Positions 1 to 47,259 of a DNA stretch of 64,000 nt are shown in pieces (the first letter of the stretch is position 1; each line of letters begins with the position of its first letter). A program made the translations under genes and the position numbers. The notes below the pieces were generated by a model that saw only the letters and a list, made by a program, of their open reading frames with translations, did no database searches and was not told where the DNA came from. Source of the stretch: a virus (taxonomy: Duplodnaviria > Caudoviricetes); IMG/VR virus record IMGVR_UViG_3300027759_000044, one strand, 5' to 3'.

Positions 1-1
1 T

Positions 2-919
2 GAAGGTCCGTTCCCAGCAGAAGTTGATCCTGCTACGGGAAAATTACCTCTTGCTAAAAGAGGTAAAAGAAAAGGACTACCGGTAAGTGATACATTAAAG
101 TATTATGCCGGTAATGAAAAAAATCTTCAACCTATGAGTCGTAATAGATATATCGCATATTTACCAACTGTACCGTTTGGTCCTGGTATTAAGAGTGGAA
201 GTGAGTTCCGTGCATTATGGGATAGATTTACTAAAGTTTTATTAGATCCAAAATCAACTCCCGAACAAAAATCTAAAGCAACAGAACTTAAAAAAGAATT
301 GGTTATGAACATGTATCCTGCAACTCAGGAGAATCCTAGATTAGCTGTCAATGTAGTTAAACTTATGGATAAAGGTATGAGCAATCCATTAACTAATAAA
401 TCAGATTTAGCAGAAGGATTATTAAATGAATTTGTTCCGCCAAGTAGCGGTGGGGGTGGCGAGAATGATAGAAATCGTAGAATAAGAAAACTATTAGAAA
501 TTGCTATACAAGTAGCAAAGCAAAAAAATGTTGATGAATTGGGTATGATACATGCTATGAATATGATAGCAGGTGATGACTTTTTTAGTGTAGCAGTTGA
601 AGGTATACTACCAGATATAACAGATAAAGAATATATGTTCGTACTACAGAGTGCCTATAAAACAGTAAAGCAAGGTTTGGCGGAAGCAGAAAAAACAGCC
701 AGAGTCTTTCACCCGCAATATGTAGATGTATACTTCTTAGATGGACCTAGAAGAACTCCTATTCTAGTTAATCGTAAAGTACCATATAATTTAATTGATA
801 GATATTTAGAAGTAGCTATTAAAAAATACAATCTACAACAGGGTCGTTTTGAGTTTAGAAACGCAGAAGAAGATCCAGTTAAGGTTACCGAAAGTGTGGA
901 TTATTTAGAAGAAAAATAA
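2..919 (+). CDS. 5'-truncated modular phage protein (Glu-linker family)
   Basis: Frame is open from base 2, upstream of the ORF-track Met at 134. Contains linkers LNEFVP, QGLAEA and VTES like neighbouring modular proteins. Confidence 0.75.
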   Translation, partial: EGPFPAEVDPATGKLPLAKRGKRKGLPVSDTLKYYAGNEKNLQPMSRNRYIAYLPTVPFGPGIKSGSEFRALWDRFTKVLLDPKSTPEQKSKATELKKELVMNMYPATQENPRLAVNVVKLMDKGMSNPLTNKSDLAEGLLNEFVPPSSGGGGENDRNRRIRKLLEIAIQVAKQKNVDELGMIHAMNMIAGDDFFSVAVEGILPDITDKEYMFVLQSAYKTVKQGLAEAEKTARVFHPQYVDVYFLDGPRRTPILVNRKVPYNLIDRYLEVAIKKYNLQQGRFEFRNAEEDPVKVTESVDYLEEK

Positions 920-970
920 TTTGACCCCCTTGTTTTGATGTAAATAATACTATCTTAACAAGAGGATCAA

Positions 971-1915
971 ATGGCAACAAAGAAAACAACCGAATCAACA
1001 GCAACTGCTGTAAAAACAACTAAAGCAAACAAGTCAGAAAAAACAGTTCCTGTAGAAAAAGTACAAGAAATTGCTGAACAGGCTGCGAAAGAACAAGCAC
1101 AACAGGCTCCTGCAGCCGGTCAAGTTCAGGTTAACGTAGACTACCTAAAAACTACTAAAGTACATATCGCTATGCCATGTTATGGTGGTATGCTAACAGA
1201 ATCAACATTTATGTCTTTTATCAAGTGGGCTAATACAGCTCGTCAACTTGGTATTGATTGGACATTAGAAACAATGGTTAACGAAAGTCTTATCAGTCGT
1301 GCCCGTAATACACTAACTGCTAAGTTCCTAGATATGCCAGACGCAACACATTTATTCTTTGTTGACGCTGACATTGGCTGGGAGCCATGGCATCTACTAG
1401 TTCTATTGAACCGTGACGTTGATGTTATTGGTGGTTTGTACCCAATGAAGACAATGCCAATCAAATGGGTTGTTAATGGCTTTGAAGGTGCTGAAGAAGG
1501 ACCAGATGGATTACAAGAAGTATCTAAAGCAGGTACAGGTTTCTTATTAATGAAGAAACATGTATTTGAGAAATTAAAATCTCATCCGGCGGTTAAGCAA
1601 TATAAAAACGACATTGGATTAGATCCAAAGTATGACCAACACTTAAAGACCTACTTTGATACAGCAGTTCGTCAAAATCGTTACTACAGCGAAGACTGGA
1701 CATTCTGTGAAAACTGGCGTGATATTGGTGGTAAGATTTGGATGGACAAACGTGTGTTGCTACGTCACTCTGGATCATATGTATTCTGTCAGGAAAATCA
1801 AGAACACTTAATGAAAACAATTGGACCTATGTTTATACAAGAACAGCAAGAAAAATTTGGAATTAAGTTCACCGATAAAGACGGTAACGAAATAAAGAAA
1901 ATAACCCCTGCATAA
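971..1915 (+). CDS. GT-A fold glycosyltransferase-like protein
   Basis: HIAMPCYGG start, ESLISRARN, FFVDADIGW (DxD), GTGFLL and SEDWTFC are typical of phage GT2-like proteins. SD GAGG upstream. Confidence 0.75.
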   Translation: MATKKTTESTATAVKTTKANKSEKTVPVEKVQEIAEQAAKEQAQQAPAAGQVQVNVDYLKTTKVHIAMPCYGGMLTESTFMSFIKWANTARQLGIDWTLETMVNESLISRARNTLTAKFLDMPDATHLFFVDADIGWEPWHLLVLLNRDVDVIGGLYPMKTMPIKWVVNGFEGAEEGPDGLQEVSKAGTGFLLMKKHVFEKLKSHPAVKQYKNDIGLDPKYDQHLKTYFDTAVRQNRYYSEDWTFCENWRDIGGKIWMDKRVLLRHSGSYVFCQENQEHLMKTIGPMFIQEQQEKFGIKFTDKDGNEIKKITPA

Positions 1916-1946
1916 TAAAGCCCCGAAAGGGGCTTTATTCTTTTTA
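1914..1946 (+). terminator. Rho-independent terminator
   Basis: AATAAAGCCCC-GAAA-GGGGCTTTATT 11-bp stem with GNRA loop, followed by a T tract, directly after the stop codon. Confidence 0.85.
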
Positions 1947-1947
1947 G

Positions 1948-1954
1948 ATAAATA
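1948..1954 (+). promoter_or_regulatory. T4-late-like promoter core (leaderless arrangement)
   Basis: ATAAATA 4 nt before ATG 1959; no SD. Confidence 0.6.
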
Positions 1955-1958
1955 CTCT

Positions 1959-3587
1959 ATGGACTTAAAAGAATTACATTCATTCAAAATGTCAGATGCA
2001 GTGACATTTCACGATAACCTCAATCCTAAACTGTTTCGTGGACAACATCTATGGCCTGAAGTAGAACTACAACTAAAAACAATAGCACAAGACTTTCTAC
2101 AAGAGATGGGTATACATGATTTGGATGTACGTGATATCACTATATCCGGATCTAACGCAGCCTACAGTTATACAGACCATAGTGATTTAGATTTACATAT
2201 CTTAGTCAATATGAAGGATTTGCCAGATGATGATATTTACCATGAATTCTTCAAAGCTAAAAAAGATTTATACAATGATTCACATGATATTACTATTAAT
2301 AGAATTCCGGTAGAATTATACATACAAGATGCGGCAGAACCTGTCACTAGTTTAGGTGAATATAGTGTTAAAGATAATAAATGGTTGCGTATGCCTGCAA
2401 AACGTAGAGCAAACTTTGACCAAACAGCTACTAAATCAAAATATATAAAACTATTAGACATTATTGATACAACATTACAATCTAATAAGATAGGCAAAGT
2501 CAATAAAATATTGAAGAAGATTAAACAATATCGTCAAGCTGGATTAGATAAAGGTGGTGAGTTTAGCCCTGAAAATCTAGCATATAAAGCATTACGTAGC
2601 CGTGGATATATTACAAAACTTTATGATTTAAGAGATAGGTTACATAGCAAACATTTAAGTCTGAATGGAATGTATTCTAATGTTAGTGAAAGTTTTGATA
2701 AACCGTATAAACTACTCAGATGGGAAAAGGGTGACTTTGGTGATGTAGACGCAATAGCACGATTAGATGACGGAACTTTTCTAAGTATCATGTTCAAGAA
2801 GGGATACAGTAAAGATACAAAAGAGGAAACATGGAGTGTTGTGTTTTGGAGAAACAATAGTCAAGAAGTCACGGGAGAAGGTGATTCTCAACGAGTATTT
2901 GCCACTGTGTTAAATGCTATACAAACATTTATTGAAAAGTATACGCCCAATAAAATAATCTTTGCGGCAAATAAAGTAGATGACACTGGACACGACACAC
3001 AAAGCAGAGCTAATCTATATGACAAATTAGTTCAGCGTTATGCCAAGTCTTGGGGATTTAAATCATTTAGAGCAGATAATGGCAATAAAGTTATCTACGA
3101 ATTGAGTAGGATAAAGAAAGATGTAGCAGAAGAATCGTTTGATGGCATAGAAATCTCTTTAGAAAAAGAAAATGATGAGATTATGGTGACAGCTATGGCA
3201 AATGGTAAAGAGTTAGGTCAAGTATTATTTGTAGAAGAAAATGGATATTTGTTACCACAAGATTTAGAAGTAGATGAACGTTACCGTGGTCAGGGTATTG
3301 CCTCTACTATGTATAACTATGTAAAAAGTCAAGGATATAAAATACGCCGTAGTGGTCAACAAACAGATTCAGGCGCCGGATTCTGGAGCAAACATCGCCC
3401 TGATCAAAATGTCTGGGAAGCATCAGGCTATATTCCTAGTGAAAAAGAGAAAAATAAACCACAATTTAGTACAGCATTAACATCAGATGTTAAGCCGGAC
3501 AGTATCAAAAAGAACGCAAAAGCATTCTATTGGAATACTAGTAGAGCAGGTATTCCACCAACAGCAAAGCCATCAGGCAAAATCTAA
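1959..3587 (+). CDS. Modular protein: Pol-beta-type nucleotidyltransferase + unknown domain + GNAT acetyltransferase
   Basis: SGSNAAYSYTDHSDLDLH (GS..DxD) and VELYIQD. C-terminal LEVDERYRGQGIAS is the GNAT acetyl-CoA motif A. Domains are separated by VSES, VAEES and VWEAS linkers. Confidence 0.75.
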   Translation: MDLKELHSFKMSDAVTFHDNLNPKLFRGQHLWPEVELQLKTIAQDFLQEMGIHDLDVRDITISGSNAAYSYTDHSDLDLHILVNMKDLPDDDIYHEFFKAKKDLYNDSHDITINRIPVELYIQDAAEPVTSLGEYSVKDNKWLRMPAKRRANFDQTATKSKYIKLLDIIDTTLQSNKIGKVNKILKKIKQYRQAGLDKGGEFSPENLAYKALRSRGYITKLYDLRDRLHSKHLSLNGMYSNVSESFDKPYKLLRWEKGDFGDVDAIARLDDGTFLSIMFKKGYSKDTKEETWSVVFWRNNSQEVTGEGDSQRVFATVLNAIQTFIEKYTPNKIIFAANKVDDTGHDTQSRANLYDKLVQRYAKSWGFKSFRADNGNKVIYELSRIKKDVAEESFDGIEISLEKENDEIMVTAMANGKELGQVLFVEENGYLLPQDLEVDERYRGQGIASTMYNYVKSQGYKIRRSGQQTDSGAGFWSKHRPDQNVWEASGYIPSEKEKNKPQFSTALTSDVKPDSIKKNAKAFYWNTSRAGIPPTAKPSGKI

Positions 3588-3612
3588 TAAGTTTCCATAT
3601 TATGGTATTTTG

Positions 3613-3619
3613 ATAAATA
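3613..3619 (+). promoter_or_regulatory. T4-late-like promoter core
   Basis: ATAAATA in the intergenic gap upstream of ATG 3643. Confidence 0.55.
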
Positions 3620-3642
3620 CACTATTAGTATGGAAATCCGTT

Positions 3643-5217
3643 ATGAAAATCAAACAAATCACTGAAAATACAACAGCAGGGTCAATAGCTACAGTAGAAA
3701 CCTCATTAGGTGGTACACAAAGTAGAGGAAATCCTAGCATATATGGCGGAAAGAAAGTAGGAACTCTATTCAAGGGTAAAAAGACTAAAGCCCCATATGC
3801 CAATAGCATCAATGAAAGTGCTGAACTAAGTGAAGCACAACTAGAAGAAGATGATGTTATTGTTGTTCCTGGACAAGGTCGTAGTCGTAAAAATGGATTT
3901 GTCCCACATGGACAAAGTCGTGTAGACCATGAAGTTGAAATGGCACGTAGTGATTTATTCAGTGCCGCAAAGAATGCTCAACAAGTTTATTCAATGATTA
4001 AAGATATTAGTGAAGATGAGGGTCTTGATGGTTGGGTACAAGAAAAGATTATCAAAGCTAATGACTATCTAAACACTATACGTGAATACTTAGAAGGTAA
4101 ACAAGTTCAAGGTGTAACAGAAAACAATCAAAGAGGTGATTCACTTGTTACTGACGCATTAAAAATAATGCGTGGTTCAGATTATCAAATGGATCCTGTA
4201 AGAGCAATAAAGACTGTGCTTGGGGAAAGAGAATACAATAGCCGTCGTGGTTTTTATAATTTCTATGTAAAACAACTAAGGGATATGTATGATCAGGAAG
4301 GTGTGGCGGAAGGTTCCAGAAACGCATATTTGAAACATAACAATTTAGTTGATATAGAAAAACCACTGGCTGGACTAAAAAGTGAGTTTGAGAAATTTTT
4401 ACAAACGCATGACCCTAAAGAAAAACAAAAATACCAACAAGGTATAAAACAACGAATCAAATCAGAACCAATGTTAGGACCAAAAGGCGTATTACCAGAG
4501 CAAGGTGTGGCGAAAGGCTATCAGTTAGATGAAGGTGCCGTTGAAACAATTACGGCATTAGTCAAGAAGATCCCTGGCATTGGCAAATATTATCAAATGG
4601 CTCAACAATACAAGCCACAACTGATTCAAATTCTAAAAACTAGTAAATCCGGTAAAGAAGTTAAACAAAAAATGGAACAGTTGGCAGCAAGTCAGTCTGT
4701 ACCGGTCGCTGAATCAGGTATGATGAAACAATTAGGTGGTTTGGCAGTTGGTGGTGGAAGTATTTTATCTACAATGTGGATGAATGCTATGGGAATGATT
4801 GATGGTGTGCTAGCACATGCGGCAGCAGGTGAGGTCGGTGGTGCAGTAGCATCCGGTAGTATCTTAGGATTAATTCCTGTAACACTAATGTTGTTTGCGG
4901 CAATGTTATTGTTCAAAGGATCACAACAAAGCAGTAATGAAAAAGCACAGGCATTTCAAGCACAACGTGGTCAGCAAGGTATGGCAGAAGGCAAACGTAA
5001 TTTGAAATGTGTATGTAAGACACATGGTACTATGCAATGTCCAGTACATACACCAAAAGATATTGAAGTAATAGAAGGTGCTAAAGTAGACCGTATGGTT
5101 AAGCATGTAGCACAATCAGAAAAGAAACTTGGTCATAGTAAAAAAGAAGCAGAGAACATTGCTTGGGCTACCGCTAACAAGCGTGGCATGTTAGATAACA
5201 AGAATAAGAAAGCGTAA
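3643..5217 (+). CDS. Modular phage protein with Glu-linker-separated domains
   Basis: Start moved from 3487 (overlaps the upstream gene) to MKIKQITE at 3643. Linkers INES, LSEA, QGVTEN, EGVAEG, QGVAKG, LDEG, QGMAEG and VIEG. One hydrophobic module and one CxCx6C module. Confidence 0.8.
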   Translation: MKIKQITENTTAGSIATVETSLGGTQSRGNPSIYGGKKVGTLFKGKKTKAPYANSINESAELSEAQLEEDDVIVVPGQGRSRKNGFVPHGQSRVDHEVEMARSDLFSAAKNAQQVYSMIKDISEDEGLDGWVQEKIIKANDYLNTIREYLEGKQVQGVTENNQRGDSLVTDALKIMRGSDYQMDPVRAIKTVLGEREYNSRRGFYNFYVKQLRDMYDQEGVAEGSRNAYLKHNNLVDIEKPLAGLKSEFEKFLQTHDPKEKQKYQQGIKQRIKSEPMLGPKGVLPEQGVAKGYQLDEGAVETITALVKKIPGIGKYYQMAQQYKPQLIQILKTSKSGKEVKQKMEQLAASQSVPVAESGMMKQLGGLAVGGGSILSTMWMNAMGMIDGVLAHAAAGEVGGAVASGSILGLIPVTLMLFAAMLLFKGSQQSSNEKAQAFQAQRGQQGMAEGKRNLKCVCKTHGTMQCPVHTPKDIEVIEGAKVDRMVKHVAQSEKKLGHSKKEAENIAWATANKRGMLDNKNKKA

Positions 5218-5218
5218 T

Positions 5219-8200
5219 ATGAGCAATATTCTAAAAGGTATATTAAACGAATCAAATCCCTTCTATGGGCACAATGATCCAGCCAGAGAATATGGAGCTG
5301 ATGATCCACCAAGATTTAACAAATCACGTTCTAGTTATCGTTCACAAGAAGATGATGATGAGTATGATCCGTATGGTTTAATAAGACAAGAAAAAGATTT
5401 TGCTAAAGGTCGTGCTATGAAGGCAGCGGCAGAAAAAGCACAACGTGATAGTGACCATGATAGATTAGCAACAGGTACAAATGAAGGTTTGGATGATCCA
5501 TGGGGAGATCAAGGTAACTTTGCAGGTGATAAGCCAGTTAATCTAGGCAATGTATCTATGAAGAACATACAAACAGGTGACACTGTTAAGTATCTTGGAC
5601 AATCATCACAAGTAGTTGCTATGAGTAAAGACCGCAAGTATTCTCGTATTAAAATTTCTAAAGGTATGGGTACTGTTACCCAAGATGTATTAACAAGTGA
5701 CTTACAACAATTAGGTCGTGGTACAGCAATAGAAGAAGATAATAATACTAGAATGAGAATGAATGATTACTATGATTTGGCAGATGCTATTCAGGAAAAA
5801 CTTAGAAATGCTATCAGAATGGGTAATAAAGAACTCATACAAAAATTAAACAAAGAACGTGATGAATTAGATGCACGTGTTAAACAATATGGATTGATGC
5901 CTGAATCACAACTAGATGAACTAGATACAAAGTTGGGTTTATATAAAATAGCAGCCGGCAAGGATGCTACTGCCGCCGATAAAGCAGGTGATTACACACG
6001 TGGTCATAAACGTTTCAAAGGTATTATGAAAGCAACCGAGAAAGAGTTTGCTAATGACGCAAAAAAGAAAAAAGATGCCGACGAAAAGAAATCTGCTATC
6101 AGTCAAGGTATAAATGAATTTTCTCCGGGTGCTACTGGCCCTAAAGGTCCTAAAGATTATGGTCAACCAAATAGCTCACGCTATATAGGTGGTAACAAGT
6201 TTGTAGTAGGTACTACTAACAACTATGTATTGACTGCAACAATAGACAAATGGGGATTAGAATGGGATGAGGATGATGAGATATGGTTCTTAGACAGTCC
6301 TGGTGCCGCTCATATTGCCGATGCTAGCGAAGGTGAAATAGAATTACCTCCTCCCCGTGAACAAAGAAATCAAATACATGATTTAGTAACTGATTATCTC
6401 AATGCTAGAAATTCTGCTGATTTACAAAAAGTAGCCGCATATTATGGTCACAGCAATGACGGTGAGATGGCAACAAATGAAGGTATAGAAGCACCTAGAT
6501 TTAACAGCAAGCAAGAAGTTATTAATCACTTTGTTAAAAACGGTAAAAGTGCGGCAGCAGGTGCAGCGGCATGGGAACGTGGTTATAGAGGTTCATCTAA
6601 TAAACCAATAGAGTTAAAGAAACCACCACAAAGAAGTTACCACGATGAACTAGATGATAAGCGTTATTCATCAATTGATGAAAATTTAGGTGATCAATTA
6701 AAATCTACATCATTTGAAGAATTAGTTAAAGCTAAATTAGCCATAGCGAGACAGATTGAAGCTGAAGCTGAAGCCTTTGAACGAGATTTGTATAAAAATA
6801 ACACGGTACAAAAAGCACAACAAGGTTTACGTAGAGAATTTGAACCAACACCAGTAGCACAGCCCGGTGAAAAGCATTCTGTATTAAAAGATAGATTAAA
6901 ATATTTAGATATTGCTAAACAAAAGTTTGAAGAAGTAAACAGATTAATTAATGCAATTAGAAAAAACTACCGACACTATGAAGTTGCAAACAAGATGGAT
7001 AAACTTGATAAGAGTCTACTACCATACGTTGAAGTTGGACCAAAAGATAATTATAAATCTTTATTTGTAAAATTAAGCAAAATTGAAACTGAGTTATCTG
7101 AACTGTATCCTACAGCAGCCGCTGCCGTAGCTAAGAAAAATAATCAAGGTGTAGCAGAAGGTTGGAGTCAAAAGTACAAGAGTAGTATCAACTGTAGTCA
7201 TCCAAAAGGATTTTCACAAAAGGCACATTGTGCTGGTAAGAAGAAACACAATGAGAGTATTGACAATATTATGGAGATGACTTGTCCTGATTGTGGTATG
7301 TGTGAAACTCATGTAGGCCATACTAATTTAGATGAAGCATGTTGGAAAGGTTATCACAAAGAAGGTATGAAAACCATGTTTGGAAAAGAATATCCAGACT
7401 GTAGAAAGAATAAAAAGAAAAATAAAACTAACAAAGAAGGTTTGGTGGAGGGCCCGGCGCTCTCTACGTCAACACTTACCGGTGAAATTCCTAGATTAAT
7501 GGGCATTCGAAAGAAAGAACAGAGAGACTTGATAGAAAAATATGCTCTCCACAACAGAGAGAAAGACTATTTTGAATTATTTGTAGAATTGTCAGGTAAA
7601 CCTATGCCTGAAATTTATAATATGAATGATTCACATCAGTTAGCGTATGAACTTTATAACTTAGGATCTCAAATTGCTAGTGATTGGCGCAATATTAGTA
7701 ACCCCGCATTCAGCCGTCGTGAATATCTCAACCAAATAATGAACGATTGGTATAATTTATTTAAAAAATCAATTCAAAAATACAAGAGTATGAAGCAAGG
7801 TTTGGCGGAGGAACAATTAAATGAATTGGATTTTTTTGCTCCTGTAACAACATTTATAAAAATGACTGATGGTAGTTATATTCAAGCAGATTGGCGCAAA
7901 AGCCAGGGTAATCCAGGACTTAGTGATTCCGCATCGTTTGTTAATTTTAAGCCAGTTAATCCAAATGTAGCAAAACAACTTGGGCTAGATAATTATCAAC
8001 GTAACAAATCTATCAGTAATTACAGAGACGGAACAATGGTCCCCGGAGGACCAATCCAAGGCAGTGGGCCTTTGGCTAATCGCGGATATGAAGTAGTAGA
8101 CTATAATAAACCAGAAACTATGGAAGAACTTCCGCCTGAAATAAAATCTGAATTAATAAAGTGGGTACAAAAGCAAAATGTAGTGGAAGAAAGTTGCCCA

Positions 8201-8650
8201 CATTGTAATGGCCCAATGTTTAGTGAAATGATAATGAATGAAAAGAAAGATGCTTGCTACTATAAAGTAAAGAGTCGTTACAAAGTATGGCCAAGTGCTT
8301 ATGCCAGTGGTGCATTAGTTAAGTGTCGCAATAAAGGCGCAAGTAACTGGGGCAACGGTGGAAAGAAAAATGAAAGTTCTATACTAGAAGGTATTAACCG
8401 AGCAGATGAAAGTTTACATGATTGGTTTAATAAAGAAAAATGGGTTCGTATGGATACTAAAGGAAAGATTAAAGGTCCGTGTGCTAGAGAACCAGGAGAA
8501 GGTAAACCAAAATGTTTGCCACAAAGTAAAGCACATAGTCTAGGTAAAAAGGGTCGTGCTAGCGCCGCTCAACGTAAACGTAGAGAAGATCCTAATCCAG
8601 AGCGTAGTGGTAAAGCTATCAATGTTGATACAAAGAAAAATAAAGGCTAA
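5219..8650 (+). CDS. 1143-aa modular phage polyprotein-like protein
   Basis: More than 15 xxE-[GSAND] linkers separate small modules, including Cys motifs CSHPKG..HC, CPDCGMC, CWKGY..DC, CPHC, CYYKVK..C and a C-terminal WF.EKWV..C module. Confidence 0.85.
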   Translation: MSNILKGILNESNPFYGHNDPAREYGADDPPRFNKSRSSYRSQEDDDEYDPYGLIRQEKDFAKGRAMKAAAEKAQRDSDHDRLATGTNEGLDDPWGDQGNFAGDKPVNLGNVSMKNIQTGDTVKYLGQSSQVVAMSKDRKYSRIKISKGMGTVTQDVLTSDLQQLGRGTAIEEDNNTRMRMNDYYDLADAIQEKLRNAIRMGNKELIQKLNKERDELDARVKQYGLMPESQLDELDTKLGLYKIAAGKDATAADKAGDYTRGHKRFKGIMKATEKEFANDAKKKKDADEKKSAISQGINEFSPGATGPKGPKDYGQPNSSRYIGGNKFVVGTTNNYVLTATIDKWGLEWDEDDEIWFLDSPGAAHIADASEGEIELPPPREQRNQIHDLVTDYLNARNSADLQKVAAYYGHSNDGEMATNEGIEAPRFNSKQEVINHFVKNGKSAAAGAAAWERGYRGSSNKPIELKKPPQRSYHDELDDKRYSSIDENLGDQLKSTSFEELVKAKLAIARQIEAEAEAFERDLYKNNTVQKAQQGLRREFEPTPVAQPGEKHSVLKDRLKYLDIAKQKFEEVNRLINAIRKNYRHYEVANKMDKLDKSLLPYVEVGPKDNYKSLFVKLSKIETELSELYPTAAAAVAKKNNQGVAEGWSQKYKSSINCSHPKGFSQKAHCAGKKKHNESIDNIMEMTCPDCGMCETHVGHTNLDEACWKGYHKEGMKTMFGKEYPDCRKNKKKNKTNKEGLVEGPALSTSTLTGEIPRLMGIRKKEQRDLIEKYALHNREKDYFELFVELSGKPMPEIYNMNDSHQLAYELYNLGSQIASDWRNISNPAFSRREYLNQIMNDWYNLFKKSIQKYKSMKQGLAEEQLNELDFFAPVTTFIKMTDGSYIQADWRKSQGNPGLSDSASFVNFKPVNPNVAKQLGLDNYQRNKSISNYRDGTMVPGGPIQGSGPLANRGYEVVDYNKPETMEELPPEIKSELIKWVQKQNVVEESCPHCNGPMFSEMIMNEKKDACYYKVKSRYKVWPSAYASGALVKCRNKGASNWGNGGKKNESSILEGINRADESLHDWFNKEKWVRMDTKGKIKGPCAREPGEGKPKCLPQSKAHSLGKKGRASAAQRKRREDPNPERSGKAINVDTKKNKG

Positions 8651-8652
8651 TA

Positions 8653-9093
8653 ATGTTATCAGATAATTTAAAAGTACTATTGGCTAGTACACAAAGTTTT
8701 GCTATCAAAACACAAAACTTTCATTGGAACGTGGAGGGAAGTAACTTCCCACAATATCACGATTTCTTTAATACACTGTATGAAGATGTAAATGCTACTA
8801 TTGATCCTATCGCTGAATATATCAGAATACTAGGTCAATATACTCCTGGCAGTTTGTCACGTTATACTGAACTAAGTATTATACAAGACCAAACTAAAGT
8901 TCCAAGAGCAGAACTTATGTTTGTTGAGTTACTACAAAATTGTGAAACAATGTCAGAACTTGTTGTTGCAATGTTTGATGAAGCTACAAATGAACGTCAG
9001 CAGGGTATTGCTAACTACATGGCTGAGTTACAAGACTTATACGGTAAGAAAGCATGGTTCATCCGTTCTACATTAAAAAGAGAACGTGAATGA
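8653..9093 (+). CDS. dps: Dps / ferritin-like DNA protection protein
   Basis: NFHWNVEGSNFPQYHDFF and DPIAEYIR are the Dps ferroxidase-centre motifs. Confidence 0.9.
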   Translation: MLSDNLKVLLASTQSFAIKTQNFHWNVEGSNFPQYHDFFNTLYEDVNATIDPIAEYIRILGQYTPGSLSRYTELSIIQDQTKVPRAELMFVELLQNCETMSELVVAMFDEATNERQQGIANYMAELQDLYGKKAWFIRSTLKRERE

Positions 9094-9722
9094 AAGCACA
9101 AGAGTTTATTATTGAAAATAACGATCAAGCCGCAGTAACTGCTCTGCAAAAAAAGCATGGATGGTCTACGGGTAGAACAGTTAATGGAGATCTCTATTTT
9201 ACCTGGCAAGGACTCGAATATGTGTTTTATGGTGAGCGTATGCGTATCAACGTCCCAAACACTGACCGCTCTATATCAGTTGTGTGGGGCAAAAAACCTG
9301 ATTGGCAAGGCCGAGGCAATGATGAAATCAGTTTTGCACAAGCAGTACAACGAAAAATTCTAAAATTTGACTTGGCAATTTGGCAACAATTGGACCGTGG
9401 CCAAATTAATGATTCACAAGCCCTACAAAAATTCAAGGTAGAAAACGAACGTCAGGCTAGAGAAGCAATTGCACAGGGTGCGACAGAAAGCATCAATGAA
9501 CAAGAAAATTCTAAAGTAGATTTGACACCTAATTATCCTAACTATGAAGTATTAATAGGAGAGTTTGTTGGCATAAGAAAAAATAGAGCAAGATTCTTAA
9601 TTGTAGCATCTGAACTTAAGCCGGGTGTGCGTGAGACTGATAATATATTCAGAGCAAAAACAACTAATACTCCAATCAGTATTGAGATTAGTAAAGTGAA
9701 AAATAGAACAGTAGTAGGATAA
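9090..9722 (+). CDS. Hypothetical protein with MKAxEFIIE leader
   Basis: ATGA overlap with dps. Leader and ATESINE linker match the modular family. Confidence 0.7.
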   Translation: MKAQEFIIENNDQAAVTALQKKHGWSTGRTVNGDLYFTWQGLEYVFYGERMRINVPNTDRSISVVWGKKPDWQGRGNDEISFAQAVQRKILKFDLAIWQQLDRGQINDSQALQKFKVENERQAREAIAQGATESINEQENSKVDLTPNYPNYEVLIGEFVGIRKNRARFLIVASELKPGVRETDNIFRAKTTNTPISIEISKVKNRTVVG

Positions 9723-9724
9723 AC

Positions 9725-10165
9725 ATGAAAAAAATATTAATAGCAATAACACTAACATTAACAACTATGGTGGCATTTGCACAAAAACAAAAGCCAATGA
9801 ATATATATGATTTCCCAATCACTAGAGTTATTGATGGAGATACTGTAGCATTTCAAGCAACATTCTTACCCCCGCCGTTAAAACAAGAACTAAGTATTCG
9901 TGTATTTGGTGTTGATACACCTGAAAAAGGTCATAGAGCGCAATGTCCAAGTGAAGATCAACGTGGTCAGGCTGCTACTGCATTTACAAAAAATGCTATC
10001 ACTAAAGCACAGAAACGTCAAGTAGCTATTGCTGATTGGGATAAGTATGGTGGACGTGTATTGGGTGATATATTACTTGATGGACAAAGTTTAAGAATGA
10101 TGTTAATACAGAATGGATTTGCAAGAGAATACTACGGAGAAGCTAAAACTTCTTGGTGTAACTAA
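9725..10165 (+). CDS. Thermonuclease (SNase-like) with signal peptide
   Basis: RVIDGDT, IRVFGVDTPE, DKYGGRVLG and N-terminal signal ending AFA. Confidence 0.9.
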   Translation: MKKILIAITLTLTTMVAFAQKQKPMNIYDFPITRVIDGDTVAFQATFLPPPLKQELSIRVFGVDTPEKGHRAQCPSEDQRGQAATAFTKNAITKAQKRQVAIADWDKYGGRVLGDILLDGQSLRMMLIQNGFAREYYGEAKTSWCN

Positions 10166-10166
10166 C

Positions 10167-10252
10167 ACACCTTAGGACCGGTACTAGTTACCGTGGTGTA
10201 GGCGGCTTCTGCCTTAAGTTATCCAATTCGCTACTGGACCTTATAAGTGAGC
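10167..10252 (+). ncRNA. Candidate structured RNA (3 stems + possible pseudoknot), unknown class
   Basis: Pairings ACACC/GGTGT, CGGTA/TACCG, AGGCGG/CTGCCT, TAAG/CTTA and TCCA/TGGA, with loop TTCGCT complementary to AGTGAG. GC-rich island in an AT-rich intergenic gap. Confidence 0.45.
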
Positions 10253-10259
10253 ATAAATA
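10253..10259 (+). promoter_or_regulatory. T4-late-like promoter core (leaderless arrangement)
   Basis: ATAAATA 5 nt before ATG 10265. Confidence 0.6.
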
Positions 10260-10264
10260 CTAAT

Positions 10265-11218
10265 ATGAGAGCAATAGAACTATACGAATCAGCCGCAACT
10301 GACCTAGCTAAGAAACTTCCTAGCTTAGAGAAGCACGACTATAATACCATTGACAAGTTAATGAAAAAGATAGCAAAGAAGCATCGTATAACCGGTGATG
10401 CATTACATGATTTATTTGTTAGAAAATATCACAAAACTCCAGACAGTTGGATTAAAGATAAACTAGATGAGGTTGGAGGACGACATTACAACCCGGATGG
10501 TACAACATATCGCGGATCCTATAATAAAATGCCAACATTAAATGATCCTAACGATATTTATAACAGGGCAGAAAGAGTACCATATAAAGATCCGGCTGGT
10601 GAGGAGCCTGCAACAGATGATAGTATTAAACAAATTATTCAAAATGGTTTAGACAGATTAACCGATGACCAACGAAAAGTATTAATTTTAAGATTTTGGT
10701 ATGACATGACATTACAACAGATTGGTGATAGGTTTGACTTGTCTAAAGATAGAATAAGACAAATTGAAGCTAAAGGATTAAGAAGATTACGAGATTCTGC
10801 TAGACATAAAGGATATGATCCCGAGTTATTAAAACCCTATATTACAGAATCTGAACAAGAAGATTTAAATAATAATCCTATTGTAAAGAAGTTTCTTGCT
10901 TGGACAAGTAAGAAGTTAAATTTAGAAAATACTCCAAAGATAGAGTTTAGTTATGATAGTGATGAAGCACAAGAAGGACATCATACTGGTAGACATAATC
11001 CAGAAACAGGTGAAGTATGGGTTTATTGTGCTAATAGAAACTTGGTAGATATCTTACGTACTGTGTTCCACGAATTAGTTCATGTACGTCAAGGCGAATT
11101 AAATATGATTAAGCCGGGTGACAGTTATCCAGGTAGTCCAATAGAAGCAGAAGCAGATGTAATGGCTGGAAAATATATTAAAATATTTGGAAAAGCACAT
11201 CCGGAAATCTTTCAATAA
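10265..11218 (+). CDS. Modular protein: small domain + sigma70 region-4 HTH module + HExxH metallopeptidase-like domain
   Basis: MRAIELYES leader. LTDDQRKVLILRF..MTLQQIG..F.LSKDRIRQIEAKGLRRLR matches sigma region 4. FHELVH..Q followed by EAEAD. Start moved from GTG 10247. Confidence 0.8.
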   Translation: MRAIELYESAATDLAKKLPSLEKHDYNTIDKLMKKIAKKHRITGDALHDLFVRKYHKTPDSWIKDKLDEVGGRHYNPDGTTYRGSYNKMPTLNDPNDIYNRAERVPYKDPAGEEPATDDSIKQIIQNGLDRLTDDQRKVLILRFWYDMTLQQIGDRFDLSKDRIRQIEAKGLRRLRDSARHKGYDPELLKPYITESEQEDLNNNPIVKKFLAWTSKKLNLENTPKIEFSYDSDEAQEGHHTGRHNPETGEVWVYCANRNLVDILRTVFHELVHVRQGELNMIKPGDSYPGSPIEAEADVMAGKYIKIFGKAHPEIFQ

Positions 11219-11228
11219 AGAGTAACAT

Positions 11229-12206
11229 ATGTCAATAACAATTACGGGTGGTATTACAATGTCAGGTGGATTGACAGTTGTACCCAAAATATTTTATTTA
11301 ATAAAAGCTATTTTTATTTTCGGAAACAACAGTGGTACTGCATGTAAAATAACCAACCTAGTATCAGACACCGGTGTAGTGGCTGCTGATATAACATATG
11401 CATCTGCTACTGCTAGATCATACCTTGCGGCAGCAGGTTATGGCAATGATAAAGCTATATTTGGATTTGGCGACCCCATCGCAAGCTCATATTCAGCAAT
11501 AACTAACCTAGTATCAAATACCGGTGTGGTTTCTTCAGATCAGGTTGCGGTCACTGGTACTGGTAGAGATTACCTTACAGCTGCAACTTATGGTGGTGAT
11601 AAAGCTATATTTGGATATGGAAGTACTGGTACATCAACTGCTGTAACTAACCTAGTTTCAAATGCAGGTGTAGTTGCGACTGATACTACAGGTGTTGGTA
11701 CTGCTAGATATGGTTTAGCAGCCGCAAGTTACGGTACTGATAAAGCTATATTTGGATTTGGATATAATAGTTCAACTTTTTACTCGCTAACTAACTTAGT
11801 AAGTAATACAGGTGTAGTTGCGACTGATACTGCTGGTGTTGGTACTGCTAGATTTGGAGTAGGAGCCGCAGGTTATGGCAATGATAAAGCTATATTTGGA
11901 TTTGGACTTACTAGTGGTGGTCCTAGTGCGGTAACATCAATAACCAACTTAGTGTCAAATACAGGTGTGGTTGCTTCAGATCAGGCTGCGCTCACTGGTA
12001 CTGATAGGACGCGCCTTGGCGCCGCAACGTATGGATCTGATAAAGCTATATTTGGATTTGGTGACATTAACAATGGTTCACAAGGAACTATTGGGAGGGC
12101 AATGACCAACTTAGTATCAAATACCGGTGTGGTTGCCGCAGATCAGGCGACAATCACAGGCACTGCCAGATTTGCTCTTGCGGCCGCATCATATTCATCA
12201 GCATAA
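11229..12206 (+). CDS. Six-repeat (about 48-54 aa) kelch-like beta-propeller, probable virion surface protein
   Basis: Six copies of KAIFGFG...TNLVSNTGVVAxD...GTAR..LAAAxY, with a short MSITITGG leader. Confidence 0.7.
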   Translation: MSITITGGITMSGGLTVVPKIFYLIKAIFIFGNNSGTACKITNLVSDTGVVAADITYASATARSYLAAAGYGNDKAIFGFGDPIASSYSAITNLVSNTGVVSSDQVAVTGTGRDYLTAATYGGDKAIFGYGSTGTSTAVTNLVSNAGVVATDTTGVGTARYGLAAASYGTDKAIFGFGYNSSTFYSLTNLVSNTGVVATDTAGVGTARFGVGAAGYGNDKAIFGFGLTSGGPSAVTSITNLVSNTGVVASDQAALTGTDRTRLGAATYGSDKAIFGFGDINNGSQGTIGRAMTNLVSNTGVVAADQATITGTARFALAAASYSSA

Positions 12207-12230
12207 ATTTTTTACGCACACGATCTAACT

Positions 12231-12238
12231 TATAAATA
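12231..12238 (+). promoter_or_regulatory. Perfect T4 late promoter TATAAATA
   Basis: Exact T4 late consensus in the intergenic region upstream of tilS. Confidence 0.55.
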
Positions 12239-12318
12239 TCTCTATACACAACCTATTATGTTGGAATTAACTAATCAATCACCCACTGACAAAATAGATA
12301 CTGAATAACCATTAATCA

Positions 12319-12347
12319 TTGCTAAACAAATCATTCTATGTTACAAT
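12319..12347 (+). promoter_or_regulatory. sigma70-type promoter (leaderless to tilS)
   Basis: TTGCTA-N17-TACAAT; the ATG at 12354 falls at the expected +1. Confidence 0.6.
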
Positions 12348-12353
12348 AGCTAA

Positions 12354-12950
12354 ATGATTAAGTTAACAGTACCCTTACCCAAAAGTATCACAATCGCATG
12401 TAGCGGTGGTGTAGATAGCATGGCAGTAGTTGACTTTCTAAGTCGCAAGCACGAAGTAACAATTGCCCATTTTAATCACAGAACACAAAACGGTGAAAAG
12501 GCCGCAGAGTTTGTTTCTAGGTATTGTGGTGATAATAATATCACTATGCTATATGGATCACCCCGAAGTCAAAAAAATAGCAAAGAAAGTCAAGAAGAAT
12601 ACTGGCGTAGAGAACGCTATAACTTTTTAAGCGAACTTGGTCCAGTTATCACTTGTCATCACTTGGATGATTGTGTTGAAACATATATTTGGTCAAGTTT
12701 ACATGGCACACCTAAAGTTATTCCATTAACACGTAACAATGTAATCAGGCCATTTCTAACTACTAGAAAACAAGATTTTGTTTATTGGTGTGAAAGTCAC
12801 AATGTATCCTGGATTGAAGATGAATCAAATAAGAATTCCAGATATACCCGAAATTATATTCGCAATGAACTAATGCCACATGCATTACATGTCAATCCAG
12901 GATTACCTAAATTGGTAAAAAAGATTGTAGAAGGTAAGCAAAATACTTGA
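12354..12950 (+). CDS. tilS: tRNA(Ile)-lysidine synthetase, N-terminal ATPase domain only
   Basis: IACSGGVDS PP-loop, AHFNH, RRERY, TCHHLDD.VET, IRPFL, W.EDESN and RNYIR. Confidence 0.85.
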   Translation: MIKLTVPLPKSITIACSGGVDSMAVVDFLSRKHEVTIAHFNHRTQNGEKAAEFVSRYCGDNNITMLYGSPRSQKNSKESQEEYWRRERYNFLSELGPVITCHHLDDCVETYIWSSLHGTPKVIPLTRNNVIRPFLTTRKQDFVYWCESHNVSWIEDESNKNSRYTRNYIRNELMPHALHVNPGLPKLVKKIVEGKQNT

Positions 12951-36870: not shown

Positions 36871-36875
36871 AAAAT

Positions 36876-36904
36876 TTGACAATAAAGCCAACCGAGTGTA
36901 TAAT
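36876..36904 (+). promoter_or_regulatory. sigma70-type early promoter
   Basis: TTGACA-N17-TATAAT, perfect consensus. Confidence 0.85.
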
Positions 36905-36935
36905 ACATAGTATTAAAGCTAATAAAGAGGTTAAA

Positions 36936-37157
36936 ATGTCTCATCAAGAATTTGAAAGCAATGTGTCTTACTTGGTCCGTCCGTTGTTAAATGACAACGA
37001 ACACGCAGGATTTTTCTCTGATACTGGTACATTGTTTGCTGAATGTTCTGAAAATACTGCCCGTAGTATTTTTCACAGATTGAGCAAAGAATTTGGTGTC
37101 GGAAAAGTACAAATAAATGGTCCTATAAACGGTGAATACTCCTACGATTTTGAATAA
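36936..37157 (+). CDS. Small early hypothetical protein
   Basis: SD GAGG; start moved from 36876, which is the promoter -35. Confidence 0.7.
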   Translation: MSHQEFESNVSYLVRPLLNDNEHAGFFSDTGTLFAECSENTARSIFHRLSKEFGVGKVQINGPINGEYSYDFE

Positions 37158-37158
37158 T

Positions 37159-37187
37159 TTGACATTAAATGGAACTTGTGCTATAAT
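37159..37187 (+). promoter_or_regulatory. sigma70-type early promoter
   Basis: TTGACA-N17-TATAAT, perfect consensus. Confidence 0.85.
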
Positions 37188-37216
37188 ACATTTTCATTCA
37201 ATTGAAGGGTGCCAAC

Positions 37217-44660: not shown

Positions 44661-44927
44661 ATGTCAGACTACACACCAAAAGTACCAGAAGTTAAATTCA
44701 ATAAAAACGGTTACGAGATTCGTACTGAAATTCTTAGACAAGCACAAGACCTTGTTGGCCAAGAGTTTTCATACAAATGGCAAGGTTGGGAAGTTTCTCA
44801 AGAAAAAGATAAAGATGGTAAACTTGTAACTAAAGTAGGTATGCCAGAATTTCCCGGAGTTGACAAAGTTTTAGAAACTGCGGAAAAGATGTACAGCTTT
44901 GTAAATCAAGCCACTAATAAAAAATAA
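44661..44927 (+). CDS. Conserved-looking hypothetical protein
   Basis: SD AAGGA; NKNGYEIR..IL..A.D motif. Confidence 0.75.
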   Translation: MSDYTPKVPEVKFNKNGYEIRTEILRQAQDLVGQEFSYKWQGWEVSQEKDKDGKLVTKVGMPEFPGVDKVLETAEKMYSFVNQATNKK

Positions 44928-45826
44928 TGAAACACAATAAATTGACCATTGTGTCCGTATTTGGACACAACGATGGTTCCGCTGCCATACCTTCTATAGT
45001 TAAAAGTATGCAGGAATTACCCGGTAGTAAAGGACTACTTCTGTCTCCGGTAAAACCACAAAATTTACCAACTTCAGTTGAGTGGAAAAAAATTGGTAAT
45101 TTAACTTATAAACAATACTCAGTTTTTATGATGCATTCTTTATATGCGTTTATTGAAACAGATTATTGTTTAGTAGTACAAGAAGATAGTTGGGTATTAA
45201 ACGGTAAAATGTTAACTAAAGAATTCTATCAATATGATTACGTTGGTCCACCGACACATTGTGGATTTCAATTTAATAAAGAAAATACGCTAATAGAAGC
45301 TTTATATTTAAAATATCAATGGATTCATTATTCAAATATAGAAGTAGTACAAAATGGTGGATTTTCATTAAGAAGTAAAAAATTTTTAGAAGCATGTAAT
45401 GTTCATGGTATTACTCATACTTCTCCCGATCCAGTAAAATTAACAAATATTAATAATATTAAAGAGGAACTGTTATGGAGTCATATTTGGAATGAAGATG
45501 TACATCTTACAGGGTTGATTAAACATCAATTAATTAGTCATGGTTATAAATTTGCACCATTGGAGGTAGCAACAAGATTTGCTATTGAATATCTAGATCC
45601 TATATTACATACTGGAATAAACTTTGACGAAATAGTAGGTCATCATGCTAAATCTAGAATTCTACTAGACAATAATCGAGTTATGGTACCAAACAATATC
45701 AGTCAGATGGAAAATTCAACTGAATTAGAAAAAGAATTAATCCATTGGATGTCTACTAAAAAGGGATATACTATTACAGTAGATCCTAATTGGGCTAGCG
45801 AATTTAATACCGTCATCCCCGCCTAA
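44927..45826 (+). CDS. DUF5672-like glycosyltransferase-fold protein, copy 1
   Basis: VQEDSWVLN, YDYVGPP, NGGFSLRSKKFL and WNED. Confidence 0.7.
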   Translation: MKHNKLTIVSVFGHNDGSAAIPSIVKSMQELPGSKGLLLSPVKPQNLPTSVEWKKIGNLTYKQYSVFMMHSLYAFIETDYCLVVQEDSWVLNGKMLTKEFYQYDYVGPPTHCGFQFNKENTLIEALYLKYQWIHYSNIEVVQNGGFSLRSKKFLEACNVHGITHTSPDPVKLTNINNIKEELLWSHIWNEDVHLTGLIKHQLISHGYKFAPLEVATRFAIEYLDPILHTGINFDEIVGHHAKSRILLDNNRVMVPNNISQMENSTELEKELIHWMSTKKGYTITVDPNWASEFNTVIPA

Positions 45827-45845: not shown

Positions 45846-46751
45846 ATGTTACATAATCAGTTAACCATTGTATCAGTGTTTGGACACAATGATGGTTCTG
45901 CCGCTATACCTTCCATAGTTAAAAGTATGAAGGAGTTACCCGGTAGTAGAGGACTACTTCTGTCAATTAAAAAACCAGAAGACCTACCAAACGACATTGA
46001 ATGGAAACGTATATTCAATCTAAATTACAAACAATATACACTTTTTATGATGCATTCTCTATATGCGTTTATTGAAACAGATTATTGTTTAGTAGTACAG
46101 GACGACAGTTGGGTGTTAAATGGAAATAAATTTGTTGAAGAATTTTATCAATATGATTATATTGGGCCGCCAACACATTGTGGATTTCAATTTAATAATG
46201 ATGCTTCGTCAATTGAACATCTATTTTTACAATTTCATTGGCTTGATAAACCTAATACATTTGTGGTACAAAATGGTGGATTTTCGTTAAGAAGTAAAAG
46301 ATTCTTAGAAGCATGTAATGTAAATGGCATAACTCATACTATACCCGAACCATTAAAATTAAAAAATGATTCAACAAAAAAAGATAATTTGTGGATTCAT
46401 AATTGGAATGAGGACGTACAGCTTACTGCACTTTTTAGACCAATCTTAACAAGTTGTGGATATAAATTTGCGCCATTGGATGTAGCATCAAAATTTGCTA
46501 TTGAATATCTAGATCCAATTTGGCATAAAGGTATAGAGTTTAATAATATTGTAGGTCATCATGCTAAATCCAGAATCTTATTACCAAATAATTTAATAAG
46601 AGTTCCGAATAATGTAGGTAAAATAGGTAAAATGGAAAAAGATTTTATTAATTGGCTAAAAAATAAAAAGGGATATAATATTATTATGGACAAAGATTGG
46701 GAAAGTAAATTTGGTGGAGGTGACGCCTCAGATAAAAATGTAGTGCGTTAG
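45846..46751 (+). CDS. DUF5672-like glycosyltransferase-fold protein, copy 2
   Basis: Tandem paralog of 44927 with the same motifs. Confidence 0.7.
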   Translation: MLHNQLTIVSVFGHNDGSAAIPSIVKSMKELPGSRGLLLSIKKPEDLPNDIEWKRIFNLNYKQYTLFMMHSLYAFIETDYCLVVQDDSWVLNGNKFVEEFYQYDYIGPPTHCGFQFNNDASSIEHLFLQFHWLDKPNTFVVQNGGFSLRSKRFLEACNVNGITHTIPEPLKLKNDSTKKDNLWIHNWNEDVQLTALFRPILTSCGYKFAPLDVASKFAIEYLDPIWHKGIEFNNIVGHHAKSRILLPNNLIRVPNNVGKIGKMEKDFINWLKNKKGYNIIMDKDWESKFGGGDASDKNVVR

Positions 46752-46794: not shown

Positions 46795-46846
46795 AAATTT
46801 GACAATAAATGGATCTTCTGCTACAATAGAATCTTAGACAGTTAGA
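46795..46846 (+). promoter_or_regulatory. Extended early promoter repeat, copy A
   Basis: AAATTTGACAATAAATGGAT..TACAATAGAATCTTAGACAGTTAGA; -35/-10 with a 17-nt spacer. Confidence 0.85.
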
Positions 46847-46859
46847 TAAAGGAAACGAA

Positions 46860-47195
46860 ATGACTACATTCATCAAAGGCAATTTCTACGGTACTGAGTA
46901 CGTTGACTACACAAACCCAGTTGATGGTACTACAAAGTTTGTAGCCCGATTCAAATATGTTCGTGGAACTAAAGCTAGTTTCCTTACATTCCTTACAAAG
47001 AACTTTACAGTTGAGGAATACTTTAGCCGTTTAGAAAAGGGTGAGGCTCCGCTTGAAATCGTCGGTTCTAAAGGTTTCATTCAACCCCATATCAAAAAAA
47101 TGCTGAAAGAACAGGGTTATCCAGTTTCCAAGGCAGGGTTTGAGCAATTAGTACAGGATAATGTTGCTAAAACACAACAAAGATTAGCCGCTTAA
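46860..47195 (+). CDS. Early hypothetical protein
   Basis: SD AAGGA after promoter A. Confidence 0.75.
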   Translation: MTTFIKGNFYGTEYVDYTNPVDGTTKFVARFKYVRGTKASFLTFLTKNFTVEEYFSRLEKGEAPLEIVGSKGFIQPHIKKMLKEQGYPVSKAGFEQLVQDNVAKTQQRLAA

Positions 47196-47245
47196 ATTTG
47201 ACAATAAATGGATTTGGGCTTATAATAGAATCTTAAACAGTTAAA
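47194..47245 (+). promoter_or_regulatory. Extended early promoter repeat, copy B
   Basis: AAATTTGACAATAAATGGAT..TATAATAGAATCTTAAACAGTTAAA. Confidence 0.85.
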
Positions 47246-47259
47246 CAACGGAGTTAAAC

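Follow-up and report, generated by a model that had tools for sequence, protein, structure and literature searches.

An in-frame linker marks module exchange in candidate capsid cargo polyproteins of a giant T4-superfamily freshwater phage

Our analysis of a 64-kb piece of an uncultured giant T4-superfamily phage (IMG/VR record IMGVR_UViG_3300027759_000044; this whole stretch of 64,000 nucleotides is referred to as the window) shows that a six-residue linker is the place at which protein modules are gained, lost and replaced, always in frame, and that the repertoire of modules is reshuffled between phages. The linker, or a degenerate form of it, occurs in a group of neighboring open reading frames, ORF A (2-919), ORF B (1959-3587), ORF C (3643-5217) and ORF D (5219-8650), each of which appears to encode a series of small modules that fold independently, with a hydrophobic-x-Glu site at each joint; the putative young form of this site is Q-G-[VLM]-A-E-[GED]. 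The reading that we favor, with moderate confidence, is that ORFs A-D are late-expressed capsid cargo polyproteins of a giant T4-superfamily freshwater phage and are cut by a gp21-type prohead protease. The proteins encoded at 9090-9722 and 10265-11218 are probably cargo polyproteins as well, the former of the same class as ORFs A-D.

The window has a GC content of 36% and carries genes for a DNA ligase, an Hsp70 and a family-B DNA polymerase. The polymerase shows 46-48% identity to its counterparts in Atu_ph07-like and Rak2-like jumbo phages. No near-identical DNA was found among cultured phages, and the stretch occurs in public metagenomes from 14 freshwater and lake studies. In place of the whole genome we used G001, a complete 348.7-kb IMG/VR contig that is syntenic with the window at ~87% nucleotide identity. 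A search with ORF C gave 80 related loci on viral contigs, and these, together with the window, supplied the linker junctions that are analyzed here (ORFs of at least 60 aa).

Within the window, the degenerate 16-mer CAAGGTDTGGCRGAAG, with up to two mismatches, matches at 671, 4297, 4501, 4975, 7145 and 7796. All six matches are on the plus strand, compared to a shuffle mean of 0.11, and none of 100 shuffles reaches six. The copies are in frame and read, in order, QGLAEA, EGVAEG, QGVAKG, QGMAEG, QGVAEG and QGLAEE ([QE]G[VLM]A[EK][GAE]), and they are confined to ORFs A, C and D. ORF B has no canonical linker, only the degenerate boundaries NVSE/S and NVWE/A (a slash marks the boundary in all such motifs). 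An earlier note, made from this DNA alone, had described a 17-nt repeat at seven positions; six of these hold, whereas the seventh, at 4108 (CAAGGTGTAACAGAAAAC, read as QGVTEN), is a more diverged, degenerate copy, yet it sits at a homology breakpoint. No flank homology between copies extends past ~20 nt. A second linker, NEF(A/S/V)P, had been reported from three genes. We find [LI]NEF[VSA]P repeatedly at junctions of ORF A and ORF D as well as of their relatives, and in ORF A and at 7796 this second linker directly follows an LAE site (repeat D17). The third case, the GGEFSP of ORF B, belongs to the interior of the conserved nucleotidyltransferase module and is no linker.

The 80 loci and the window together contain 164 G[VLIM]AE sites in the ORFs analyzed. 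Every site is on the coding strand, and the set comprises 134 unique junction contexts. Partners are swapped on both sides of the linker. An upstream module that ends ...AFQAQRGQ continues past QG[VM]AE into at least seven different sequences, and six different sequences stand ahead of the one downstream module YQLDEGA...; junctions after QGLAE and QGVAE follow the same pattern. The comparison with G001 resolves individual events. Window positions 4314-4967 (654 nt), exactly between two linker copies, are missing in G001, where a 24-nt stretch aligns to both of the copies that flank this cassette. A DUF6934 plus GNAT block between NVSE/S and NVWE/A is present in the window and not in G001, a ~240-aa block between GLVE/G and NVVE/E is extra in the window, and the segment ahead of QGVAEG/WSQKY differs between the two. 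Comparison of orthologous loci had been suggested in the earlier note, and the module gains and losses at linkers, including the 654-nt cassette, agree with what it anticipated.

The same pattern extends beyond this pair. Chained BLAST high-scoring segment pairs (HSPs) reveal dozens of distinct deletion or replacement events, the edges of which cluster at linker or boundary sites. Internal HSP ends lie within six residues of [GN][VLIM]xE[GSAEDN] in 184 of 651 cases versus 39 expected, which we report as an enrichment and not as a P value because HSPs are non-independent. In four freshwater metagenome studies, contigs join across cassettes at 4122>4975, 4521>4975, 5076>5195 (three runs), 3132>3429 and 686>899. 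These joints were read in the parts of the window with contig cover, from short contigs at 85% likeness that stem from related phages, and we regard them as supportive rather than decisive. A conserved short DNA motif at indel breakpoints between close relatives, the feature that characterizes the PeSL cassettes discussed below, is present here. The proposal that cassettes are shuffled through the DNA homology of the linker is thus upheld as far as shuffling at the linker is concerned, both by relatives and by environmental contigs; that this homology is the cause of the shuffling and not its trace is what we infer from the pattern.

The linker is written in codons that are rare in this phage, so its conservation extends to the DNA. 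In the window background, GTG makes up 10% of Val codons, GCG 8% of Ala codons and GGC 13% of Gly codons, whereas at the linker GTG is used in 82 of 101 cases, GCG in 104 of 134 and, at P1', GGC in 56 of 78. Third codon positions of the linker carry 1.06-1.55 bits versus ~0.1 in the flanks, and the DNA consensus is aG CAA GGT GTG GCG GAA GGc. At the P5 codon, the first base varies (C, G, A) while AA is kept, and the codon before it tends to end in G. Departures from the consensus are mostly G-to-A transitions that co-occur (odds ratio 9.4), which fits linker copies of different ages. The rare codons and third-position bits take the DNA-level conservation beyond what had first been noticed.

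None of the causes that we tested explains this rare-codon conservation. A two-tetrad G-quadruplex (GG-TGT-GG-C-GG-AA-GG) was rejected, as the key synonymous Gs persist in 78% and 73% of sites without the fourth GG run. For within-genome gene conversion, identity is 0.806 within loci versus 0.802 between loci (permutation p = 0.34); linkers within a locus are no more alike than those from different loci, and therefore local gene conversion does not explain their uniformity. An internal Shine-Dalgarno sequence or start codon was dismissed by reading, given no conserved downstream start, GTA at 19 of 101 Val codons and the wrong spacing, and GC-maximizing microhomology fails because GGT, GAA and CAA are favored over GGC, GAG and CAG. 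An Rfam scan of window positions 1-12500 gave no match, and the linker flanks show no conserved structure, with neither a hairpin nor a promoter consensus.

That these genes are strings of small unrelated modules, as first proposed, is supported by the HSP ends near linkers and by the AlphaFold prediction for ORF C, in which small helical units follow one another and pLDDT falls below 50 at 159-161, 221-226, 279-304 and 443-475, which are the linkers. Homology breakpoints and model together indicate six to nine modules each in ORFs C and D. ORF B has a nucleotidyltransferase, DUF6934, GNAT and a small C-terminal module. The full-length ORF A orthologue in G001 has 368 aa and starts with a cytidylyltransferase-like HxGH module. 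Pfam searches with single modules matched only DUF6934, GNAT and, weakly, DUF5872. In the 10265-11218 protein, a sigma-70 region-4 domain forms an in-frame cassette between KLDE.G and YITE/SEQ, and abundant 191-aa homologues exist without it. The annotated GTG start of this gene at 10247 is probably wrong; the ATG at 10265 comes after the promoter motif.

The modules are also widespread. The C-terminal Cys-rich modules of ORF D are found in thousands of phage proteins, and a search with ORF D shows that 6,233 representative clusters (E up to 0.001) share its modules. In the best 150 of these 6,233 there are 243 canonical linkers in 99,988 aa, with at least one in 106 of the 150. Between the terminase genes g16 and g17, T4-like cyanophages encode proteins built from ORF D-type modules in a row, with other xxE joints, and the S-SM2 protein additionally contains the helical hairpin of ORF C module 1.

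Several independent, indirect lines fit the view that the chains are a protease-processed payload and partly support it: the protease itself, sites in the scaffold and in a propeptide, promoters, leaders and a virion homologue. T4 gp21 cuts after L/I-x-E (PMC9026906). A Peptidase_S77 prohead protease (PF03420, above cut-off) is present in all five large relatives, including G001, and so is a gp23-type capsid protein. In the 103,499 aa of the G001 proteome, [VLIM]AE[GSAE] occurs 28 times. Four of these sites fall in the 366-aa scaffold (shuffle mean 0.43, P = 0.0009), where they are ~40 times denser, two are in the gene immediately upstream of the protease and one (QLLAE/S) is in the propeptide of the capsid protein, near the start of the mature T4 protein. 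KLVAEG and LAES are kept in four scaffolds.

The leaders MKIKQITE/N (ORF C), MKAQEFIIE/N (9090) and MRAIELYE/S (10265) resemble the capsid targeting sequence (CTS) of T4, MKTYQEFIAE (PMC8442874). All seven matches to the leader pattern are at first Met codons, the ORF C leader is retained in ~55 divergent relatives, and proteins with CTS-like leaders in other parts of the window matched only DUF6321. A late-promoter-like motif, NATAAATA, stands upstream of ORFs B, C and 10265. In G001 this motif is rarer than base composition predicts and is concentrated ahead of gene starts, among them those of the sheath, baseplate wedge, large terminase and virion-protein genes. In many late genes (window 1959, 10265, 41850, 43957 and 61557, and in G001) it lies only 3-6 nt before the ATG, which suggests leaderless or nearly leaderless late mRNAs. 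A link to virions comes from the cyanophage S-CREM2, in whose virion proteome ORF156 was detected (PMC10665884, Table 3). With ORF B module 1 this protein shares 36% identity (E 2e-43), and its end coincides exactly with that of the module. The gene for a virion cytidylyltransferase of S-CREM2 lies two genes upstream of ORF156; its match to the G001 ORF A is weak (E = 0.005), with a Pfam match just below cut-off, and both are hints only.

We propose that each chain is taken into the prohead core, in the case of ORF C via the CTS-like leader MKIxQIxxE, and that the gp21-type prohead protease would then cut after each Glu. Once freed, the modules would stay inside the head until they pass into the host along with the DNA. 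New junctions would likely arise by recombination between linker copies that still match, so that consensus copies would multiply into new contexts; copies with the consensus DNA would spawn most new junctions, and old ones would decay to a bare [VLI]xE.

A number of observations weigh against this proposal. The protease was seen in relatives, its gene being outside the 64-kb window, and in G001 the locus (~288-294 kb) is far from the head genes (98-101 kb). The motif [VLIM]xE has low information, and the capsid-protein site is ambiguous between ILE/N and LAE/S. ORFs B and D have no clear CTS-like leader, and one ORF C module has two membrane-type helices, which is unusual for a soluble head-internal protein. 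In the phage collection no ORF C homologue was found, and no cultured phage carries ORF C. If cutting is required, the junction at 4501, where Lys replaces the essential Glu, would remain uncut. Finally, a protease site leaves the conservation of synonymous sites unexplained.

Two alternatives keep the linker as a peptide feature but remove the prohead protease. The chains might be multidomain ('polyvalent') proteins that are never cleaved, with the linker as only a hinge and recombination joint and the modules acting together in the cell or virion. Module swapping requires no cleavage, no peptidase domain was detected in ORFs A-D, and the QGVAKG copy at 4501 has no Glu; in addition, nucleotidyltransferase and GNAT domains occur in known polyvalent proteins, some of which undergo transfer at full length (PMC5512222). 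A hinge, however, needs no invariant hydrophobic-Ala-Glu core across 134 junctions, and even decayed junctions retain [VLI]xE. The linker tetrapeptide is enriched in the scaffold, which is degraded by T4-type proteases, and the modules are unrelated to each other and occur elsewhere as stand-alone proteins. We consider uncleaved chains unlikely. It would be very improbable, in our judgment, that another protease cuts the linkers, although a candidate exists in the HExxH (zincin-like) protein of 10265-11218, which could act as has been proposed for embedded metallopeptidases of polyvalent proteins, where zincin-like peptidases are the commonest hub domain (PMC5512222). This protein has a conserved HExxH with EAEAD downstream, and its gene, 1.6 kb downstream of ORF D, combines a late-promoter-like motif with a CTS-like leader. 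Yet the HExxH domain has no Pfam match, and in the fold search the sigma region-4 cassette prevailed, as the only part with a match. The known signature of gp21 is a hydrophobic P3 and a cut behind Glu, and the sites in the scaffold and capsid protein have the same motif.

The remaining alternative reverses the roles of peptide and DNA: the 18-20-nt sequence would primarily be a nucleic-acid element, such as a recombinase or nuclease target or an RNA signal, and the peptide would be secondary. In its favor are synonymous positions that are kept on rare codons across divergent phages, a P5 codon whose first base varies while AA stays, and linkers that are no more alike within loci than between them. 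But every one of the 164 copies is read in frame on the coding strand, with no intergenic occurrence, there is no evident dedicated recombinase beside the loci, and the Rfam, flank-structure and G-quadruplex results above give such an element no support. In addition, decayed junctions lose the DNA motif and retain the peptide [VLI]xE. A primary role as a nucleic-acid element is thus quite unlikely, and a processed capsid cargo remains the reading that we prefer.

A bolder proposal, which we put forward tentatively and with more doubt than conviction, is that the linker may be a dedicated in-frame recombination joint, a counterpart of exon shuffling, in which an 18-20-bp element doubles as a protease site and allows a community-wide combinatorial exchange of effectors among freshwater and marine giant and T4-like phages. 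Any exchange between copies, in any gene or phage, would then yield a correctly framed and correctly processed cargo set. The DNA consensus would be held either by molecular drive, in which only consensus copies spawn junctions, or by a sequence-specific enzyme.

If the favored reading is true, a single gene would supply a set of small proteins that reach the host just as infection begins, and this set could be re-dealt at a universal joint with frame and processing intact, which would explain the fast diversification of the first-strike proteins of giant phages. A simple rule, 'cut at QGVAE', would parse thousands of unannotated metagenomic phage proteins into functional units, and capsids might be loaded with proteins of choice by means of the standard linker and leader. 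Why a linker of six residues is conserved at the codon level in divergent phages is a puzzle worth solving by itself.

Coordinates of the features are collected in Table 1. Further observations concern neighboring genes. Between the polyprotein genes, window positions 971-1915 encode a protein (phrog_1574) whose N-terminus is rich in Lys, Ala and Thr and whose DxD core is glycosyltransferase-like; its contig depth in metagenomes is 3-8 times higher, so this gene is common to many more phages. A Dps/ferritin-like gene (8653-9093) directly follows ORF D, and a staphylococcal-nuclease-like gene with a signal peptide (9725-10165) follows ORF 9090. A glycine-rich repeat family with MSITITGG/MSVTFSGG starts and 127-nt internal repeats is found at window 11229-12206 and at G001 156598, 161584, 283001, 321121 and 331591; many glycine-rich paralogues lie behind NATAAATA motifs. 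The same motif is upstream of a full-length Hsp70/DnaK gene at 57633-59528 (Pfam E 1.6e-258). Repeated intergenic cassettes of the form AAATTTGACAATAAATGG...TATAATA (36872-36905, 37155-37213, 46795-46853 and 47194-47252) resemble sigma-70-type early promoters and also match several places in G001. Tandem paralogous genes at 44927-45826 and 45846-46751 share 74-79% nucleotide identity over 236-300 nt, and G001 has open reading frames of 5,996 and 4,990 aa at 75040 (-) and 134833 (+), respectively.

Table 1. Features of the candidate cargo genes and their junctions (window positions unless another source is given; a slash marks the boundary)
Feature	Position	Strand	Description
ORF A	2..919	+	5' end cut by window; joints DLAEG-LLNEF (403-432), AVEG, QGLAEA (671-688)
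Linker QGLAEA	671..688	+	CAA GGT TTG GCG GAA GCA; at least 4 different modules after QGLAEA in relatives
Late-promoter-like motif	1947..1954	+	GATAAATA, T4-type; 4 nt before ORF B start; after terminator-like hairpin
ORF B	1959..3587	+	Nucleotidyltransferase (1-236), DUF6934-like, GNAT, small C-terminal module
ORF B cassette slot	NVSE/S (2679-2693) to NVWE/A (3408-3422)	+	0 to 677 aa in relatives
Late-promoter-like motif	3612..3619	+	GATAAATA; 23 nt before ORF C start
ORF C	3643..5217	+	Leader MKIKQITE/N, disordered N-terminal region, then helical modules
Degenerate linker QGVTEN	4108..4125	+	Left edge of ORF C main cassette slot; joint 4122>4975
Linker EGVAEG	4297..4314	+	GAA GGT GTG GCG GAA GGT; with 4975 brackets the 654-nt two-module cassette
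Linker variant QGVAKG	4501..4518	+	Glu to Lys; relatives have QG[VM]AEG at the same junction
Linker QGMAEG	4975..4992	+	At least 7 different downstream modules in relatives
Degenerate boundary EVIE/G	5065..5079	+	Before last ORF C module; in three studies environmental contigs are without the module, from exactly 5076
ORF D	5219..8650	+	1143 aa, ~nine modules; start overlaps ORF C stop region
GINE/F junction	6107..6121	+	Second linker type, ORF D
Linker QGVAEG	7145..7162	+	Upstream sequence replaced in G001
Degenerate boundary GLVE/G	7439..7453	+	Left edge of ~240-aa cassette; cassette missing in G001 and many relatives
Linker QGLAEE	7796..7813	+	Followed by QLNE/L
Degenerate boundary NVVE/E	8177..8191	+	Right edge of ~240-aa cassette; QGVAE/E there in relatives
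Two-module protein	9090..9722	+	Leader MKAQEFIIE/N; internal QGATE/S (QGVSE/S in G001)
Leader protein	10265..11218	+	MRAIELYE/S behind CATAAATA (10252-10259); N-terminal module, sigma-70 region-4 cassette, C-terminal HExxH domain
Cyanophage chains of ORF D-type Cys-rich modules, g16-g17	P-RSM4 PRSM4_120 (L109 1486-2583); S-SM2 SSM2_109 (L110 1632-3758)		

We found no published description of the linker in the literature searched, and the systems that come closest each share part of its features. The internal head proteins of T4, IPI, IPII, IPIII and Alt, are similar in that the relatives studied here are T4-superfamily phages that encode a gp21-type protease, that ORF C, 9090 and 10265 have a short CTS-like N-terminal leader with hydrophobic-x-Glu at its end, and that late-promoter-like motifs accompany ORFs B, C and 10265. 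The proposed fate, which would comprise packaging, cleavage and ejection with the DNA, is also alike. However, the T4 proteins are single-module and cut once, whereas here up to ~nine unrelated modules per gene are separated by a repeated standard site that is also conserved as DNA and is an exchange point.

Polyvalent proteins are polypeptides of phages or conjugative elements that each unite two to fifteen disparate domains (Iyer, Burroughs, Anand, de Souza and Aravind, 2017, PMC5512222). The chains here fall within this range and likewise combine many unrelated domains, including a Pol-beta-type nucleotidyltransferase and GNAT, and the predicted delivery of polyvalent proteins with the DNA and their release by proteolysis resemble our reading. 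In their case embedded, mostly zincin-like peptidases were proposed, for which ORFs A-D offer no counterpart. In addition, most modules here are tiny and uncharacterized, and a single DNA-conserved linker punctuates the chains, whereas PMC5512222 describes no recurrent linker and the word 'linker' is not in its text.

In phiKZ-like giant phages (SPN3US gp53/gp54, motif A-X-E; PMC10052503), head-packed, ejected proteins likewise have several sites at which a prohead protease cleaves behind Glu, and long N-terminal propeptides are fragmented. The P3 residue is Ala in SPN3US and Val, Leu or Met here. The SPN3US substrates are not shuffled chains of unrelated modules, and a DNA-conserved linker has not been reported for them.

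The exchange itself finds its nearest parallels in T4-type phages, where the PeSL cassettes (PMC2839356, PMC4122927) and the glycine-rich motifs of gp38 (PMC3157838) are short conserved sequences that mark indel or replacement breakpoints, as here. PeSLs, however, mobilize whole genes and consist of an intergenic early promoter and a stem-loop terminator, and in the gp38 adhesin the glycine-rich motifs form structural core elements of a single protein. Here, a 6-codon linker lies in frame within coding sequence, between unrelated modules and in several genes, and therefore every exchange yields a new fusion protein.

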